DNA from: Escherichia coli
Lineage (GTDB): Bacteria > Pseudomonadota > Gammaproteobacteria > Enterobacterales > Enterobacteriaceae
Reading direction: 5' to 3' (one strand)
DNA: 7,140 nucleotides
NCBI RefSeq assembly: GCF_003334335.1
Contig: NZ_QOWQ01000073.1
The position numbers and the translations under genes are program-made. Of this stretch, positions 1,761 through 7,140 are shown piece after piece. A model generated the notes under the pieces. It worked only from the letters and a program-made list of their open reading frames with translations. It searched no databases and had not been told where the DNA came from. How positions within the stretch are numbered: the stretch's first letter is position 1; each line of letters begins with the position of its first letter.

Positions 1761-3251
1761 TTATAAGCCAAAGGATTGCTCATGCCATCTTATCAGTTTC
1801 TGGCTGTAGCACGCATTCAGTTCAGGCAGCGTGATATTGTTTATTTCGGAAAGCAGGACATAGGTGGTTTTTCCTTCCTGCACGACAGAGAGCCTGAGTT
1901 GAGATGCAAGAATGTTCAGCAGGACGTTCAGCTTTTTCCTGTTCCGGAACCGGCCCGGGCCACACTGGAGAATATAATTTTTCCTGACACGGGGCGGGCA
2001 TTCTCCGCGGCACTCCTCAATGAGCCAGTCGAGCAGCTCCCGGGCGTCCTGCAGCTGCAGTTCAGATTCGTCAGGTAACGCAAATAATTTTTTATATTCA
2101 TCTGTGTACCACGAACTTATTACGACAGCAGACGTCATGATATCGGCAGAGATTTTCCCTTCACCCTGACTGAAATACTGCAATAACGCAGCAATTCTCG
2201 CAATGTTTTCTGTTTTTTTTGAAACATGCCCCCGAAACTGGCTTAAGGGTCCGGAAGGAGACAAATCCTGCTCCAGAACATTATAGTGATCAATAAATAT
2301 TTTTTGCGCTTCAGGAGAAAAATGCAGACAATAACGTTCATCCTTACTGGATTTTTCAATACTGCCTCTGGCCAGTTCCATTAATCGTTCATGAAATGCC
2401 GTTAATGATCCTCCCGGGGTCACAGCTCCGTTAATAAAGCGTTTCCCCTGCGTGGTGGCAGGTTTACTGATTAGACAACGGGCAAGAAAACCACTGTCCC
2501 TGGCAACAGAACCTTTTCGCTCCATATATCGGTCAAAAAGACCGGGTTGTACCATGAGGGATAATGTCATTCTAGCATTTTCAATCATCTGTTCGGGTTC
2601 ATTCTTTCTGTCCACCGACAATACGGAGCCATCCCACATTTTGTTAATAAAAGGCAGCTCAGACAGGGTATACCCATCAAATATTATACCGGCTTCATCA
2701 GACATGATACCCACTGAACGCCACTGACCACAAAGCTGATCTTTAATTGCTGCTGTCGTGGCATCATTAAAAATGAATTTATATCTTACAGGTTTTTCCC
2801 CTCTGTTTTTCTGAAGCGCTTCCAGTTGTCTGAGCGTTTCTGACTCATCCGCGCCTTTGCGGAGTTCTTTATTCAGTTTTGACAACAATGCTTTTTTCTG
2901 CGCCTTTAAAAGCTCTTCCTTATTTTTCCATATCGTCAGTTCATTTTTGTGTCTGGAATATAACAGCATCTCCTGCTGGTACAGGGGCTCCATTAATAAT
3001 TTGTCCACTGCGGTTTTTCGTTCTCCGGACTCAGCAAGCGTCAGTAAGAAAAGAGAAACCGGCCCCCGCAGTGTATTCAGTCTGCAGACATCAATCAGAT
3101 TCTGGCAGACAAGTGAAACAGCGCCCAGGGCAGATGCTGCCACAAGCCCCAGGGGAGCCTGCGTGATTTGCTGAGCTTCAATAACGGCATCACGAATGAG
3201 TGGAGGCAGCGAGCTCAGGGGAAACTCATCAGGATACTGAAAGTATGGCAT
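1761..3251 (-). CDS. YfjI-like DUF3987-domain protein (mobile-element associated, possibly replication-related), 496 aa
   Basis: Minus-strand ORF 1761..3269. I start it at the ATG at 3251 (MPYFQYPDEF...) because a GAGGT Shine-Dalgarno sits 5 nt upstream on the minus strand. The N-terminal region (FPLSSLPPLIRDAVIEAQQITQAPLGLVAASALGAVSLVCQNLIDV) resembles DUF3987/YfjI proteins as I recall them. The many short ORFs overlapping it are antisense or alternate-frame artefacts. Confidence 0.8.
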   Translation of the reverse strand: MPYFQYPDEFPLSSLPPLIRDAVIEAQQITQAPLGLVAASALGAVSLVCQNLIDVCRLNTLRGPVSLFLLTLAESGERKTAVDKLLMEPLYQQEMLLYSRHKNELTIWKNKEELLKAQKKALLSKLNKELRKGADESETLRQLEALQKNRGEKPVRYKFIFNDATTAAIKDQLCGQWRSVGIMSDEAGIIFDGYTLSELPFINKMWDGSVLSVDRKNEPEQMIENARMTLSLMVQPGLFDRYMERKGSVARDSGFLARCLISKPATTQGKRFINGAVTPGGSLTAFHERLMELARGSIEKSSKDERYCLHFSPEAQKIFIDHYNVLEQDLSPSGPLSQFRGHVSKKTENIARIAALLQYFSQGEGKISADIMTSAVVISSWYTDEYKKLFALPDESELQLQDARELLDWLIEECRGECPPRVRKNYILQCGPGRFRNRKKLNVLLNILASQLRLSVVQEGKTTYVLLSEINNITLPELNACYSQKLIRWHEQSFGL

Positions 3252-4084
3252 AATGACCTCACAACACACAGAACATAAAGTACCGCAACTATTGCTACTA
3301 ATAGCAAAAATAGCAGCAGAATCAATACAGGATAAAAATTTCTGTCGATTTTCAGATTAAATAATAACCATTCGGTATTTTGTCGCTAAAGAATGTTAGA
3401 ATGAATCTGTGCGTCTACGGGCGCTCTCCGGAACACACATGTTGATTAATTTTCACACAACAACGTACCAGCAAAAAGCATCATCCAGGGTATTGCAGGT
3501 ACGGGTTTCCTGCCGGGAATAAACATAAACAGTTTCCCCGGAGTAACGCTTTCAGAAAACTGCCCTCCTGAAGAAGAATAAAATAAAGAAGATGACAGTT
3601 CCTGCACTGAATGCTGAGTACAATATTCTATGGACAGGATGACATTTTTATAAATAACAAAAACCATTTAATACTGATACATCAATAAAATACTTCCTCC
3701 CTGCTGACACAGATAAAATGCAACATTTTTTCTTCAAATACTTCTGTATAATCGCCAGCCAATGATGAGAATGGATTAAAATAACACTTCTTCGACAAAC
3801 ACAAAAACCAGCCTTCATTTTCACATCATCATCCAGTTTTAATTAAACCCTGACGAGCGACAGTATTTCAGTTCAGGAATTAAAAGCCAGCTATTACTCA
3901 GTAAAAACACCACCAACTAATAATATCTCAGCAGATATTTCCTGACCAGGATGACACATTTATTAAAGATTTTTAACAGGACACTTCACATTACTGAACG
4001 CTATTCCGACAGTATCACTACACAAATAAAAAAGGGAACTGGATAAATATTCATGCCGGAAGAATGGTGTAACAAAAGCATTTA

Positions 4085-4221
4085 ATCATTACGTGCGTAT
4101 TCCTCTCTATTCGATCACGGTTTGGCCAAACCGTGATCGATTCAGATGCCATTTTGCAAGTACGCATGACCCGGAAGGGAAACACTTAACAACATGGTAT
4201 CAACAGATATCATTACGTGCG
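4085..4221. repeat. 13-bp perfect direct repeat ATCATTACGTGCG (4085-4097 and 4209-4221) bracketing the 30-bp palindrome
   Basis: Read directly. Both copies are identical over 13 bp with similar T/C-rich tails (TATTCCTCTCTAT vs CACTCTTAT). They are 124 bp apart. Confidence 0.85.
4111..4140. repeat. 30-bp perfect palindrome TCGATCACGGTTTGGCCAAACCGTGATCGA with two symmetric GATC sites (candidate operator or RNA hairpin)
   Basis: The sequence equals its own reverse complement over exactly 30 bp (checked base by base); it does not extend, since 4110 and 4141 are T and T. GATC at 4113-4116 and 4135-4138 are the only GATC sites in the 3270-4540 spacer. Confidence 0.9.
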
Positions 4222-4357
4222 CACTCTTATAAAAATACACAGCAGAAGCAAGATAACTCTAAACGTAAATTTAATATCTCCCACTGACTGCCCCGACAAT
4301 ATACTGAAAAATACTCACCTCAGTAAACATAAACACACCTGATAATCAGGCTGCAAG

Positions 4358-4441
4358 ATGAATATTTTTCTCCTTTACGGAGTAATCAGCCTGCTGTTTA
4401 ACAATAACCGCGTATTTTCATGGAAGGATATCACCCAATAA
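4358..4441 (+). CDS. Candidate small ORF, 27 aa (MNIFLLYGVISLLFNNNRVFSWKDITQ); possible leader peptide or small hydrophobic protein
   Basis: ATG at 4358 to TAA at 4439-4441, verified codon by codon. Hydrophobic N-terminal half. A weak AGG lies 7 nt upstream and a 13-bp palindrome CCTGATAATCAGG (4338-4350) sits just before the start. A terminator-like hairpin follows about 85 nt downstream. The ORF is too short for statistical support. Confidence 0.15.
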   Translation: MNIFLLYGVISLLFNNNRVFSWKDITQ

Positions 4442-4527
4442 CGGATAACTCCTGCCCTCCTTCATGTTAATACGCAACATCCCCATCGATTCCAAACAAT
4501 TTCAGACAGATATTATCTCCGTGAATC

Positions 4528-4566
4528 CCCCGCCACCTTTCCGGTGTGCGGGGTTTTGTCTTTTTT
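4528..4566 (+). terminator. Intrinsic (rho-independent) terminator-like hairpin plus U-tract, immediately upstream of the GTPase start codon
   Basis: GC-rich stem 4528-4537 (CCCCGCCACC) pairing with 4543-4553 (GGTGTGCGGGG) with one bulged T and a 5-nt loop TTTCC, followed by TTTTGTCTTTTTT (4554-4566). The GTPase ATG is at 4583. Confidence 0.6.
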
Positions 4567-4582
4567 CACCGGGAATACATGT

Positions 4583-5455
4583 ATGAATCCGTCTGATGCC
4601 ATTGAGGCAATTGAAAAACCACTTTCTTCCCTGCCTTACTCGCTTTCCCGTCACATCCTGGAACATCTGCGCAAACTCACCAGTCACGAACCCGTGATTG
4701 GCATTATGGGTAAAAGCGGGGCCGGTAAATCCTCACTCTGTAATGCACTGTTTCAGGGGGAGGTCACCCCGGTCAGTGATGTTCACGCCGGCACCCGGGA
4801 AGTGCGGCGCTTCCGTCTGAGTGGCCACGGTCACAGCATGGTTATCACTGACCTGCCCGGGGTGGGCGAGAGCCGGGACAGGGATGCAGAGTATGAAGCC
4901 CTGTACCGTGACATTCTGCCTGAACTGGACCTGGTGCTGTGGCTGATTAAAGCCGATGACCGGGCCCTGTCTGTGGATGAGTATTTCTGGCGACACATCC
5001 TGCAGTGCGGACATCAGCAGGTGCTGTTTGTGGTGACACAGGCCGACAAAACGGAGCCCTGCCATGAATGGGATATGGCCGGCATTCAGCCCTCTCCCGC
5101 ACAGGCACAGAACATTCGCGAAAAAACGGAGGCGGTATTCCGTCTGTTCCGGCCTGTACATCCGGTTGTGGCCGTATCGGCCCGCACCGGCTGGGAACTG
5201 GATACGCTGGTCAGTGCGCTCATGACAGCGCTTCCCGACCATGCCGCCAGTCCCCTGATGACCCGCCTGCAGGACGAGCTGCGCACGGAATCTGTCCGCG
5301 CTCAGGCCCGTGAGCAGTTTACCGGTGCGGTGGACCGGATATTTGACACAGCGGAGAGCGTCTGTGTTGCCTCTGTTGCACGCACGGTTCTGCGTGCCGT
5401 CCGTGACACAGTGGTCTCTGTTGCCCGCGCGGTATGGAACTGGATCTTCTTCTGA
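4583..5455 (+). CDS. yeeP: YeeP/YfjP/YkfA-family GTPase of cryptic prophages/islands (ribosome-binding GTPase-like), 290 aa, apparently intact
   Basis: ORF 4544..5455. Start set at ATG 4583 (MNPSDAIEAIEKPL...) with a weak GGGAA 7 nt upstream; GTG 4544 is an alternative. P-loop GKSGAGKSS (G1), DLPGVGE (G3, DxxG) and TQADK (G4-like) are present. Its position directly upstream of the Ag43 gene matches the yeeP-flu arrangement in E. coli K-12 as I recall it. Confidence 0.85.
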   Translation: MNPSDAIEAIEKPLSSLPYSLSRHILEHLRKLTSHEPVIGIMGKSGAGKSSLCNALFQGEVTPVSDVHAGTREVRRFRLSGHGHSMVITDLPGVGESRDRDAEYEALYRDILPELDLVLWLIKADDRALSVDEYFWRHILQCGHQQVLFVVTQADKTEPCHEWDMAGIQPSPAQAQNIREKTEAVFRLFRPVHPVVAVSARTGWELDTLVSALMTALPDHAASPLMTRLQDELRTESVRAQAREQFTGAVDRIFDTAESVCVASVARTVLRAVRDTVVSVARAVWNWIFF

Positions 5456-5526: not shown

Positions 5527-5555
5527 TTGTCCGTGCAATAGCTTGATAATAGAAT
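5527..5555 (+). promoter_or_regulatory. Candidate sigma70 promoter for agn43/flu (-35 TTGTCC, 17-bp spacer, -10 TAGAAT)
   Basis: TTGTCC at 5527-5532 and TAGAAT at 5550-5555, separated by 17 bp. The predicted start site is about 5562, at the first GATC, which fits the known overlap of the promoter with the OxyR/Dam site. Not experimentally positioned here. Confidence 0.45.
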
Positions 5556-5560
5556 AAAAC

Positions 5561-5596
5561 GATCGATACCTATTTTATCGATCGTTAATATCGATC
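5561..5596. promoter_or_regulatory. Ag43 phase-variation switch: three clustered Dam GATC sites (5561-5564, 5580-5583, 5593-5596) within the presumed OxyR binding region
   Basis: Sequence CGATCGATACCTATTTTATCGATCGTTAATATCGATCGTT read directly, about 190-230 bp upstream of the Ag43 start codon. Three GATC sites inside the OxyR operator are the established hallmark of the agn43 Dam/OxyR epigenetic ON/OFF switch. Confidence 0.8.
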
Positions 5597-5760
5597 GTTA
5601 TGCTAATAATAACTCCTGTTAGCAACGTGCACAGATACACACAGACATGAGATTCAGGGAACAACAGAGCCACACGTCAGAAACTTCCGTCAGCCGGACC
5701 TCCGGCACTGTAACCCTTTACCTGCCGGTATCCACATCTGTGGATACCGGCTTTTTTATT
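5562..5760 (+). ncRNA. isrC: agn43 5' leader / IsrC-like small RNA (promoter-proximal transcript ending at the leader terminator)
   Basis: Inferred: a transcript starting near 5562 from the candidate promoter would end at the strong terminator at 5724-5760, giving a product of about 200 nt. In E. coli K-12 the sRNA IsrC is annotated between yeeP and flu, as I recall. The ends are not determined from sequence. Confidence 0.4.
5724..5760 (+). terminator. Intrinsic terminator in the agn43 leader (12-bp perfect stem, 4-nt loop, T-run)
   Basis: GCCGGTATCCAC (5724-5735) pairs perfectly with GTGGATACCGGC (5740-5751), loop ATCT, followed by TTTTTTATT (5752-5760). It lies 29 nt upstream of the Ag43 ATG. 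Confidence 0.75.
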
Positions 5761-5788
5761 CACCCTCACTCTGATTAAGGAAATGCTG

Positions 5789-7140
5789 ATGAAACGACAT
5801 CTGAATACCTGCTACAGGCTGGTATGGAATCACATTACGGGCGCTTTCGTGGTTGCCTCCGAACTGGCCCGCGCACGGGGTAAACGTGGCGGTGTGGCGG
5901 TTGCACTGTCTCTTGCCGCGGTCACGTCACTCCCGGTGCTGGCTGCTGACATCGTTGTGCACCCGGGTGAAACAGTGAATGGCGGAACACTGGTAAACCA
6001 TGACAACCAGTTTGTATCCGGAACAGCTGATGGCGTGACTGTCAGTACCGGGCTTGAGCTGGGGCCGGACAGTGACGAAAACACCGGCGGGCAATGGATA
6101 AAAGCGGGTGGCACAGGCAGAAACACCACTGTCACCGCAAATGGTCGTCAGATTGTGCAGGCAGGAGGAACTGCCAGTGATACGGTTATTCGTGATGGCG
6201 GAGGGCAGAGCCTTAACGGACTGGCGGTGAACACCACGCTGGATAACAGAGGTGAGCAGTGGGTACACGGGGGAGGGAAAGCTGCCGGTACAATTATTAA
6301 CCAGGATGGTTACCAGACCATAAAACATGGCGGACTGGCAACCGGAACCATCGTCAACACCGGTGCAGAAGGTGGTCCGGAGTCTGAAAATGTGTCCAGC
6401 GGTCAGATGGTCGGAGGGACGGCTGAATCCACCACCATCAACAAAAATGGCCGGCAGGTTATCTGGTCTTCGGGGATGGCACGGGACACCCTCATTTACG
6501 CCGGTGGTGACCAGACGGTACACGGAGAGGCACATAACACCCGGCTGGAGGGGGGTAACCAGTATGTACACAACGGTGGCACGGCAACAGAGACGCTGAT
6601 AAACCGTGATGGCTGGCAGGTGATTAAGGAAGGAGGAACTGCCGCGCATACCACCATCAACCAGAAAGGAAAGCTGCAGGTGAATGCCGGCGGTAAAGCG
6701 TCTGATGTCACCCAGAACACGGGCGGTGCACTGGTTACCAGTACAGCTGCAACCGTCACCGGCACAAACCGCCTGGGAGCATTCTCCGTTGTGGCGGGTA
6801 AGGCTGATAATGTCGTACTGGAAAATGGCGGACGTCTGGATGTGCTGAGCGGACACACAGCCACTAATACCCGCGTGGATGATGGCGGAACGCTGGATGT
6901 CCGCAATGGTGGTACCGCTACCACCGTATCCATGGGGAATGGCGGGGTACTGCTGGCCGATTCCGGGGCCGCTGTCAGTGGTACCCGGAGCGACGGAACG
7001 GCATTCCGTATCGGAGGCGGTCAGGCGGATGCCCTGATGCTGGAAAAAGGCAGTTCCTTCACACTGAACGCCGGTGATACGGCCACGGATACCACGGTAA
7101 ATGGCGGACTGTTCACCGCCAGGGGCGGCACACTGGCGGG
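5789..7140 (+). CDS. flu: Antigen 43 (Ag43) self-associating autotransporter adhesin, 5' part (signal peptide plus passenger beta-helix); runs off the window end
   Basis: ATG 5789 with AAGGA (5777-5781) 7 nt upstream. Translation begins MKRHLNTCYRLVWNHITGAFVVASELARARGKRGGVAVALSLAAVTSLPVLAADIVVHPGETVNGG..., matching the Ag43 N-terminus including the extended autotransporter signal peptide. The frame is open to 7140 and shows the ~19-residue Gly/Thr/Asn-rich repeats typical of the passenger domain. Confidence 0.9.
   Translation, partial: MKRHLNTCYRLVWNHITGAFVVASELARARGKRGGVAVALSLAAVTSLPVLAADIVVHPGETVNGGTLVNHDNQFVSGTADGVTVSTGLELGPDSDENTGGQWIKAGGTGRNTTVTANGRQIVQAGGTASDTVIRDGGGQSLNGLAVNTTLDNRGEQWVHGGGKAAGTIINQDGYQTIKHGGLATGTIVNTGAEGGPESENVSSGQMVGGTAESTTINKNGRQVIWSSGMARDTLIYAGGDQTVHGEAHNTRLEGGNQYVHNGGTATETLINRDGWQVIKEGGTAAHTTINQKGKLQVNAGGKASDVTQNTGGALVTSTAATVTGTNRLGAFSVVAGKADNVVLENGGRLDVLSGHTATNTRVDDGGTLDVRNGGTATTVSMGNGGVLLADSGAAVSGTRSDGTAFRIGGGQADALMLEKGSSFTLNAGDTATDTTVNGGLFTARGGTLA
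6100..7140 (+). repeat. Degenerate ~57-bp (19-20 codon) periodic repeats encoding the Ag43 passenger beta-helix rungs
   Basis: Recurring units such as AGGTASDTVIRDGGGQSL / GGGKAAGTIINQDGYQTIK / NGGTATETLINRDGWQVIKEGGTAAHTTINQKG at roughly 19-20 residue spacing in the translation. These explain the long spurious antisense ORFs in this stretch. Confidence 0.7.

Follow-up and report, generated by a model that had tools for sequence, protein, structure and literature searches.

A conserved promoter-like box and terminator hairpin directly upstream of the YeeP/YfjP/YkfA-family GTPase gene of CP4-type genomic islands in Enterobacterales

The window analysed here, a stretch of 7,140 nucleotides (nt) of Escherichia coli DNA (contig NZ_QOWQ01000073.1 of assembly GCF_003334335.1), is a piece of a genomic island of the CP4-44/CP4-57 type. 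The central 1.4 kb that was searched (positions 3300-4700) showed 100% identity to strain G1/2 and 99.3% to CFT073, in which the GTPase gene is C_RS17355. On the plus strand the window encodes a 68 amino acid (aa) AlpA-family helix-turn-helix (HTH) protein (776-982) that belongs to the excisionase-type Phage_AlpA family (Pfam PF05930), a protein of 190 aa without a family match (1068-1640), and an Era/EngA-like TRAFAC GTPase of the YeeP/YfjP/YkfA family (4583-5455), the latter assigned by RefSeq, by NCBIfam matches and by alignment to its K-12 paralogues. The nearest gene upstream of the GTPase gene is yfjI on the minus strand (1761-3251), which is divergent and 1.3 kb away, and the two are separated by an AT-rich spacer of 1.33 kb that is poor in open reading frames (ORFs). 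Downstream follows agn43, encoding Ag43, with its RefSeq start codon at 5789 on the plus strand. Its promoter TTGTCC-17-TAGAAT (5527-5555, plus strand) was located by a consensus scan and served as a comparison element; the hexamers of the isrC promoter in PMC3946193 are identical to it. The prematurely terminated leader of agn43 is the IsrC/IS102 RNA (5559-5764, plus strand; Rfam RF00124, 255.5 bits), whose 3' end is formed by a terminator hairpin at 5724-5751 on the same strand and the U-tract behind it. The subject of this analysis is the short region between the AT-rich spacer and the GTPase gene, where a promoter-like box, a terminator hairpin and the start codon follow closely upon each other.

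Just before the GTPase gene we found a terminator hairpin at 4528-4553 on the plus strand, with a stem of 10 bp (8 G-C pairs, one A-U and one G-U) that carries one bulged U, a loop of 5 nt (UUUCC) and a folding energy of -18.5 kcal/mol. The 5' arm CCCCGCCACC occupies positions 4528-4537, the loop TTTCC 4538-4542 and the 3' arm GGTG-(T bulge)-GCGGGG 4543-4553, and the 3' side of the stem is abutted by the U-tract TTTTGTCTTTTTT (also written UUUUGUCUUUUUU) at 4554-4566 on the plus strand. In a context of 51 nt the hairpin fold reached -21.3 kcal/mol (z = -4.1) and none of 200 shuffled sequences was as stable; the hairpin was further retained in all minimum free energy and centroid folds, those of longer contexts included. 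Its d'Aubenton-Carafa-type score was +30.8, compared to +48.9 for the IsrC terminator and +45.7 for that of K-12 yfjP. A stricter hairpin scan of the plus strand of the window returned three sites, namely 683-722, the GTPase hairpin and the agn43/IsrC terminator. A loose consensus terminator scan gave 8 sites against 6.8 expected, which was not significant, and saw only a 5-bp sub-stem before the GTPase gene. The hairpin with T-tract closely upstream of the GTPase start codon, as described in the sequence-only reading of this DNA, is thus borne out by coordinates, fold energy and conservation alike. Between the end of the U-tract and the ATG at 4583 there are 16 nt (4567-4582), which include a weak Shine-Dalgarno sequence GGGAA (4571-4575, plus strand) 7 nt 5' of the ATG, or 8 nt if counted from GGGA; other lineages carry CTGAGA or GAGGAG at the aligned position. 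Because a promoter has no space in these 16 nt, the GTPase would be made from read-through transcripts only, in agreement with what had been proposed from the sequence.

A putative sigma-70-type promoter that had been overlooked previously lies directly 5' of the hairpin. The -35-like hexamer TTCCAA (4490-4495, plus strand; three of six matches to TTGACA) marks the onset of conservation and of homology between islands. It is followed on the same strand by the 15-nt spacer ACAATTTCAGACAGA (4496-4510; consensus ATAATTTCAGAyAGA), which is unusually conserved for a promoter spacer, and by the -10 hexamer TATTAT (4511-4516; five of six matches to TATAAT). From promoter geometry and from an invariant GAA we predict the transcription start at G4523 on the plus strand, the seventh base past the -10 hexamer. 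Since the promoter adjoins the hairpin, the hairpin would begin at about +6 of the transcript, covering +6 to +31 of a predicted leader of 60 nt. An imperfect palindrome of 25 bp, TTCAGACAGATA-T-TATCTCCGTGAA (4501-4525), is centred on the -10 hexamer and represents a possible operator; in a pattern check it matched at 4501-4517 on the plus strand without mismatches and at 4509-4525 on the minus strand with 3 mismatches. The palindromic and highly conserved nature of the box suggests an operator overlying the -10 hexamer. For the K-12 paralogues, genomic SELEX (systematic evolution of ligands by exponential enrichment) with RpoD holoenzyme in vitro gave peaks in the perR-ykfA and rnlB-yfjP spacers, and TTGAAA-15-TATCAT was proposed as the 'constitutive promoter' of ykfA and yfjP (Shimada 2014, PMC3946193). 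These hexamers align with the box of the window; the exact promoter was picked by eye in that study, and the binding is of low positional resolution.

Conservation of this region was assessed in 80 GTPase loci from species representatives of the Enterobacterales, with genera including Escherichia, Citrobacter, Klebsiella, Enterobacter, Salmonella, Yersinia, Serratia, Hafnia, Photorhabdus, Erwinia and Arsenophonus, and information content was calculated from 86 distinct upstream regions. Mean information content was 0.09 bit per position at -90 to -35 and 1.35 bit per position at -34 to -1, with a sharp rise at -34 (about 0.1 bit before it, above 1.2 bit from there on), and the promoter box was conserved from -34 to +4. 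The -10 hexamer read TATCAT in 44 and TATTAT in 41 of the 86 distinct sequences, and the hexamer 15 nt 5' of it was TTCCAA, TTCAAA, TTGAAA or TTAAAA. G at +1 and A at +2 were invariant (2.0 bit), and the spacer consensus and the GAA nearly so. The loci fall into two deep groups, a yeeP-type and a yfjP/ykfA-type, whose GTPases are about 50% identical. Between these groups the box showed 69% identity, compared to 38.5% at the third codon positions of the best-conserved GTPase block and 26.5% in the upstream flank. The yfjP/ykfA-type box carries TTCAGA-N13-TCTGAA, and the pattern TTCAGANANATATYAT was found exactly once per locus, always 5' of the GTPase gene and never alone. When E. coli island types were compared, homology broke off at 4476, 4489 and 4494, i.e. 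around the -35 hexamer, and the upstream cargo (restriction-modification genes, hypothetical genes, insertion sequence elements) differed from island to island. Among complete E. coli genomes about 78% had a match to the GTPase module, and to the cassette with it, frequently in more than one copy. The module was present also in Klebsiella, Salmonella, Yersinia, Citrobacter, Serratia, Photorhabdus and others; on plasmids the cassette was rare (28 of 72,556 records).

The hairpin was conserved in a different manner than the box, namely as a structure. Of the 80 distinct leaders, 77 had a hairpin with a T-rich tract behind it, and the spacing to the GTPase start codon was held at 22-30 nt. A terminator score above 0 was obtained for 55 of the 80 leaders and for one of 240 shuffled leaders, and predicted terminator strength differed widely among lineages. 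Leaders of the yeeP-type group have 5 nt between their predicted 5' end and the stem, in the yfjP/ykfA-type group the stem starts at +13 to +18, and at least 42 different inner-arm sequences were counted. Retention of the stem through compensatory changes was a test set in advance, and it was seen in both groups. In the 12-bp helix of the yfjP/ykfA-type group 93.3% of cells were paired, compared to 30-54% in slid controls, and 9 of 12 pairs had changes on both sides; none of 500 shuffles matched the observed value on four of five measures, and 6 of 500 did on the fifth (further pair types). RNAalifold predicted the same helix unprompted, and compensatory changes were seen in 8 of its 10 pairs. 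Pairing in the yeeP-type group held for 88.4% of cells, with double changes at four pairs and covariation of the inner pairs. An alignment-free arm-swap, in which 3' arms were exchanged between leaders, gave mean energies of -16.2 kcal/mol for a leader's own arms, -7.7 kcal/mol for swapped arms and -3.95 kcal/mol for arms swapped between the groups. Stem sequences have been replaced entirely between lineages while pairing was kept. K-12 yfjP and ykfA illustrate this: both have the same order of AT-rich box, hairpin, U-tract, Shine-Dalgarno sequence and ATG, and both carry TTGAAA at -35, with wholly different stems (CGGCAGAACC/GGTTCTGCCG and CGGCGGAATC/GATTCTACCG). A Raoultella copy with a truncated GTPase gene had a decayed hairpin. 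Since pairing and U-tract are kept while the sequence of the stem changes, the element is selected as a structure followed by U residues, i.e. as a terminator. In K-12 the whole cassette was seen a second time in degenerate form, from box over CGGCAGAATC hairpin and U-tract to Shine-Dalgarno sequence, together with the first codons of a ykfA-like GTPase, at 7930-8050 of the locus designated L093; this copy lies 5' of the ypjI pseudogene in CP4-57 and is a remnant of the 5' end of another island's GTPase gene.

Conditional termination, attenuation or antitermination had been offered in the sequence-only reading as ways in which read-through might come about. Read-through itself stands, RNA-based attenuation does not, and a conditional nature of termination was not borne out. 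Folding of 4440-4585 and of 4523-4620 revealed no competing antiterminator fold, RNAalifold found no second conserved helix, and the mutually exclusive antiterminator structures that had been envisaged for 4440-4583 were thus not recovered. A conserved antiterminator in that interval is moreover impossible, because homology between island types starts only at 4476-4494 and nothing is conserved 5' of the -35 hexamer. Attenuation by an RNA switch, be it of riboswitch or leader-peptide type, is excluded, since only 5-17 nt precede the stem and there is neither another fold nor a leader ORF. A search with all Rfam families (E up to 1) matched the window only with IsrC at 5559-5764 and the GTPase leader not at all, and the GTPase leaders of eight other loci had no Rfam match either. 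Two coding candidates were rejected. An ORF of 40 aa at 4464-4586, whose stop overlaps the ATG and would have allowed translational coupling, begins 5' of the homology onset and crosses the covarying stem. A GTG at 4544, considered as another possible start, falls within the hairpin, and it is with the ATG that alignment of the homologues begins at their N-termini.

We favour, with a probability of roughly 45%, a passive and leaky terminator gate, with any conditional control being exerted at initiation. A compact cassette of about 95 bp, made up of promoter, start near G4523, hairpin, U-tract, Shine-Dalgarno sequence and ATG, would travel with the GTPase gene, and any polymerase, whether it comes from the cassette promoter or from the variable upstream cargo, would meet the terminator ahead of the start codon. 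Only the read-through fraction would yield mRNA for the GTPase and the downstream genes. The terminator would act passively, so that the island module is kept low and is shielded from transcription entering from upstream, and conditional control, if there is any, would operate at initiation via the palindromic promoter box. Passive action is assumed because neither a competing RNA structure nor a leader peptide could be accommodated in the leader. That polymerase does terminate at this site, how efficiently it does so and that the mode is passive are inferences; the start at 4523 likewise is a prediction. The wide variation in terminator strength is more readily reconciled with a tunable, leaky gate than with an all-or-none lock, and the upstream neighbour is frequently divergent or distant, which makes the hairpin more than the terminator of an upstream gene.

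Several points weigh against such a gate. For low expression alone a weaker promoter would suffice, and for insulation one would expect the terminator to precede the promoter. A conserved promoter with a conserved terminator immediately behind it is the hallmark of factor-dependent antitermination. The conserved spacer sits where the binding elements of Q and of Pseudomonas aeruginosa AlpA sit, and downstream genes of the same module are preceded by further terminators. The promoter of the window is also weak on paper, with a -35 hexamer of only three matches in six and a spacer of 15 nt instead of the typical 16-18 nt, and the consensus promoter scan did not call TTCCAA-15-TATTAT. The available parts of published start-site and 3'-end data (Adams 2021, Kim 2012, Ettwiller 2016, Yan 2018, Naville 2010) contained nothing at the predicted coordinates, and those of the Cappable-seq and single-molecule real-time (SMRT)-Cappable-seq data showed no signal for the predicted RNAs. 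Kim 2012 gives only weak starts for ykfA, located 265 and 506 nt upstream, and the Term-seq data of Adams 2021 (PMC7815308) list no 3' end for yfjP or ykfA. For K-12 we predict a yfjP start at 2767642 (plus strand) with a 3' end at about 2767687-9, and a ykfA start at 269028 (minus strand) with a 3' end at about 268980-2. An RNA of about 40 nt may be missing from Term-seq because its size escapes the libraries, or the promoter may be silent.

The strongest competitor of the passive gate, possible and less probable than it, is a DNA-binding protein that would dock at the palindrome or at the conserved spacer, load onto departing RNA polymerase and override this terminator together with the later ones before yfjQ, the antirestriction gene and Ag43, so that all of the island module comes on jointly. 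The promoter-terminator architecture, with the hairpin at +6 to +31, resembles that of phage late promoters under Q control (lambda PR'-tR', phages 82 and 21) and of the AlpA-controlled alpB and PA0807 of P. aeruginosa, where a terminator lies tens of bases past the promoter, an element between -35 and -10 is conserved and more terminators follow downstream in the unit; at PA0807 the element to which AlpA binds lies between -35 and -10 and the onset of the terminator is 26 bp past the start (PMC7969949, PMC9371919). Conservation of the spacer (-27 to -13) far beyond the needs of a sigma-70 promoter and the absence of an alternative RNA structure point in the same direction. So do several co-directional module genes with a hairpin and U-tract 23-37 nt 5' of the ATG, a distance into which a promoter would not fit, and the hairpin between the GTPase gene and yfjQ, which is kept in about 35 loci. 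The cassette differs from the Q and AlpA systems, however, in that neither an antiterminator gene nor a clear sigma-dependent pause nor an abundant terminated RNA was found. No antiterminator candidate was identified among the proteins of the locus. The 68-aa HTH protein of the window is of the excisionase type (PF05930) and was rejected as a homologue of P. aeruginosa AlpA, which is larger and has a 21Q-like fold (PMC9371919); the two are different families and the name is a coincidence. The 190-aa neighbour was rejected as a Q-like factor, with no matches in Pfam, PHROG or NCBIfam and an unusable single-sequence AlphaFold model (predicted local distance difference test, pLDDT, 41). The box had no meaningful match in the AlpA-regulated intA region of K-12. 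The WYL regulator YfjR is unsupported as a binder of the box, as its own upstream motif differs (GGACA-N5-TGTCC), and no YfjR sites were found by ChIP-exo (chromatin immunoprecipitation with exonuclease treatment; PMC8464067). The RfaH ops element GGCGGTAGnnTG is absent as well: the window had no match with fewer than 2 mismatches and the leader none at all, while matches with 2 mismatches numbered 9 in the window against 5.0 expected. By inspection, a convincing -10-like pause element was not seen in the first transcribed bases; the yfjP/ykfA-type sequence GAACAT from +1 has A2, A5 and T6, and the yeeP-type sequence GAATCC lacks T6. A constitutive promoter of the Q type would be expected to yield an abundant short RNA, and none appears in Term-seq. 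We thus prefer the passive gate over factor-dependent antitermination, by a margin that is not large, because terminator strength varies by lineage, the cassette persists in the decayed islands of K-12 and no abundant short RNA has been reported. That the cassette is the entry to a processive antitermination circuit of CP4-type islands, by which a silent module is switched on at once, seems unlikely to us. If true, a factor that recognises the box would load onto RNA polymerase and take it past the terminators before the GTPase, DUF932, antirestriction and Ag43-like adhesin genes, and in E. coli the circuit would bypass the phase variation of Ag43.

Slightly more doubtful still is the view that the box is inactive as a promoter in vivo, being instead a protein-binding site or recombination boundary, and that the hairpin stops upstream transcripts whose rare read-through makes the GTPase. 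It is related to the earlier suggestion that the hairpin ends an independent upstream transcript, which does not fit this locus with yfjI divergent and 1.3 kb off. In line with an inactive box, the predicted start is unsupported by published start-site lists, the box forms the border between variable cargo and conserved module, and a better-scoring promoter-like site exists 300 nt upstream (4186-4213). Among 74 loci the nearest upstream ORF was co-directional and ended within 100 nt in 24, but it was on the opposite strand in 29; where the neighbour is divergent, as it is here and in at least 29 further loci, no transcript arrives from upstream that would have to be ended. The conserved block moreover has the extent and geometry of a promoter (-35 hexamer, fixed 15-nt spacer, TATyAT and an invariant purine 7 nt on), and holoenzyme binds the spacers of the K-12 paralogues in vitro. 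We consider it improbable that the hairpin is a 5'-proximal stem protecting the mRNA, with a U-rich stretch that boosts translation and with termination being incidental. The yeeP-type stem lies only 5 nt from the predicted 5' end, and the U-rich region of 15-20 nt exceeds the needs of termination and abuts the Shine-Dalgarno sequence. At +13 to +18, however, the yfjP/ykfA-type stem is too distant to confer classical 5' protection. In almost all lineages the U-run sits right against the stem, with terminator scores comparable to that of IsrC, and a pairing of the U-tract with the Shine-Dalgarno sequence, tried as a candidate and rejected, showed no covariation. Least probable of all, and by our estimate very improbable, is that the cassette serves to make the terminated RNA (about 35-45 nt) as such, be it a small RNA or a decoy for Hfq or another protein. 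A promoter with a terminator is the classic signature of a small RNA, a hairpin that ends in a U-tail constitutes an Hfq-binding module, the 5' tail GAACATACC of the yfjP/ykfA-type is conserved, and IsrC is sometimes regarded as a small RNA or decoy. Yet the RNA of the window would be nearly all hairpin with a tail of 5 nt and no seed region, the stem sequence varies freely, the element always lies 22-30 nt from the GTPase start codon and never occurs alone, and no such RNA was seen in Term-seq.

The layout before agn43 was named in the sequence-only reading as a recurrence of that before the GTPase gene, from which a shared regulatory logic of the two adjacent genes was suggested. The 3' layout is indeed alike, with a stem, a U-run and, after about 30-37 nt, an ATG (terminator 5724-5751, ATG 5789). 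In both leaders there is no space for a promoter behind the terminator, which in agn43 has a 12-bp stem and a U-tract 37 nt 5' of the ATG, expression depends on read-through, a short terminated RNA would arise as by-product, and the flank after the U-run is similar (TTTTTTCACC and TTTTTTATTCACCC). The likeness does not extend to adjacency, which is confined to the CP4-44 type of E. coli, nor to sequence family. Across the Enterobacterales the cassette mostly has no Ag43 gene next to it, and Ag43 follows the GTPase gene directly only in that type; 63 of the 80 loci have a WYL regulator downstream of the GTPase gene, with or without a DUF932 gene. With about 160 nt ahead of its terminator, the agn43 leader (about 227 nt) leaves room for RNA effects, whereas the GTPase hairpin begins at about +6 of 60 nt. 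Initiation at agn43 is phase-variable via OxyR and Dam with three GATC sites, whereas the GTPase box contains no GATC, and the leaders share neither sequence nor Rfam kinship. Antitermination at IsrC is noted in PMC5389530, citing Wallecha 2014. The cassette is best classed with the known promoter-proximal or 5' untranslated region (5'-UTR) intrinsic terminators. It shares with the 5'-UTR terminators of Term-seq (Adams 2021, PMC7815308), with attenuators and with riboswitches a hairpin and U-tract between start and ATG that limits expression. In those elements leader sequence 5' of the hairpin adopts an alternative fold, codes for a leader peptide or is bound by a small RNA or ligand, whereas here only 5-17 nt precede the stem.

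A weaker form of shared logic, in which several island genes have a terminator just 5' of their start codon, survives with some support, and in layout the module resembles an operon with terminators set between its genes. In the K-12 locus L093 a hairpin at 1102-1129 precedes the yfjQ start codon at 1166, and another at 8374-8396 precedes that of lfgA/yfjX at 8420. On the reverse strand of CP4-6, hairpins with U elements lie before ykfF and yafX. Ag43-like genes that directly follow yfjR have hairpins at 5702-5730 (locus L054), 5667-5695 (L066) and 5706-5736 (L069), with stems that differ from the IsrC terminator of E. coli. We found no conserved promoter 5' of the terminator between the GTPase gene and yfjQ. 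The YfjR family combines a DeoR-type HTH domain with a WYL domain. Its gene lies about 1.1-2.7 kb past the GTPase start (loci L012 to L091; 2204-2905 in K-12 L093), adjacent to the GTPase gene in the yeeP-type and after the DUF932 gene yfjQ in the yfjP/ykfA-type; the island of the window has no YfjR gene. Upstream of yfjR there are GGACA-N5-TGTCC-like repeats, at about 2015-2145 in L093 and about 3548-3672 in L006. For genes with leader terminators, altered RNA polymerase occupancy has been described in a strain lacking the omega subunit: in a chromatin immunoprecipitation (ChIP)-chip study (PMC5811629) nowhere in the genome was the change larger than at flu, the altered sites further included probes within yfjP and yfjQ and within the perR-ykfA spacer, and yfjQ mRNA was up 4.8-fold. 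The altered loci are those with leader terminators, and effects on initiation, on termination and on the phase state of flu are inseparable in these data.

Further features were observed in the remainder of the window. Upstream of the cassette, the 1.2-kb spacer at 3252-4489 has a G+C content of 32-42%, few ORFs and no annotated gene, its plus strand shows a strong skew of C over G and of A over T, and at least 80% of its length is kept in about 1810 E. coli genomes. Such a composition is typical of DNA bound by H-NS and, as RNA, of Rho-loading sites. Within this spacer lies a perfect 30-bp palindrome, TCGATCACGGTTTGG/CCAAACCGTGATCGA, at 4111-4140 with a GATC at each end, flanked by direct repeats of 18 nt, ATCATTACGTGCG(T/C)A(T/C)TC, at 4085 and 4209 (region 4085-4226); palindrome and repeats could represent a protein-binding or origin-like site. 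The top sigma-70-like match of the window, TTAACA-16-TATCAT at 4186-4213 on the plus strand (10 of 12 matches), is the promoter-like site 300 nt 5' of the cassette mentioned above. It has ACAGATATCAT in common with the GTPase box, a third similar word occurs at 3928-3938, and the site may be what is left of a duplicated box, or else a second promoter whose transcripts run into the same terminator. Finally, the strong hairpin TTCCCCGG-N8-CCGGGGAA at 683-722 (-20 kcal/mol within an extended fold) lies about 55 nt 5' of the AlpA-like HTH gene and has no adjacent U-tract.

We found no published account of the cassette. That a promoter and a terminator were preserved in tandem over such evolutionary depth, with the stem changing in sequence and not in structure, indicates a deliberate gating of transcription into these islands. 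As a passive gate, the cassette would be a natural attenuator and insulator, which would explain the near-silence of the module genes in laboratory strains. If the gate is opened by a factor, it would represent a new antitermination system that links the Ag43 adhesin, antirestriction and toxin-antitoxin genes in pathogenicity islands.

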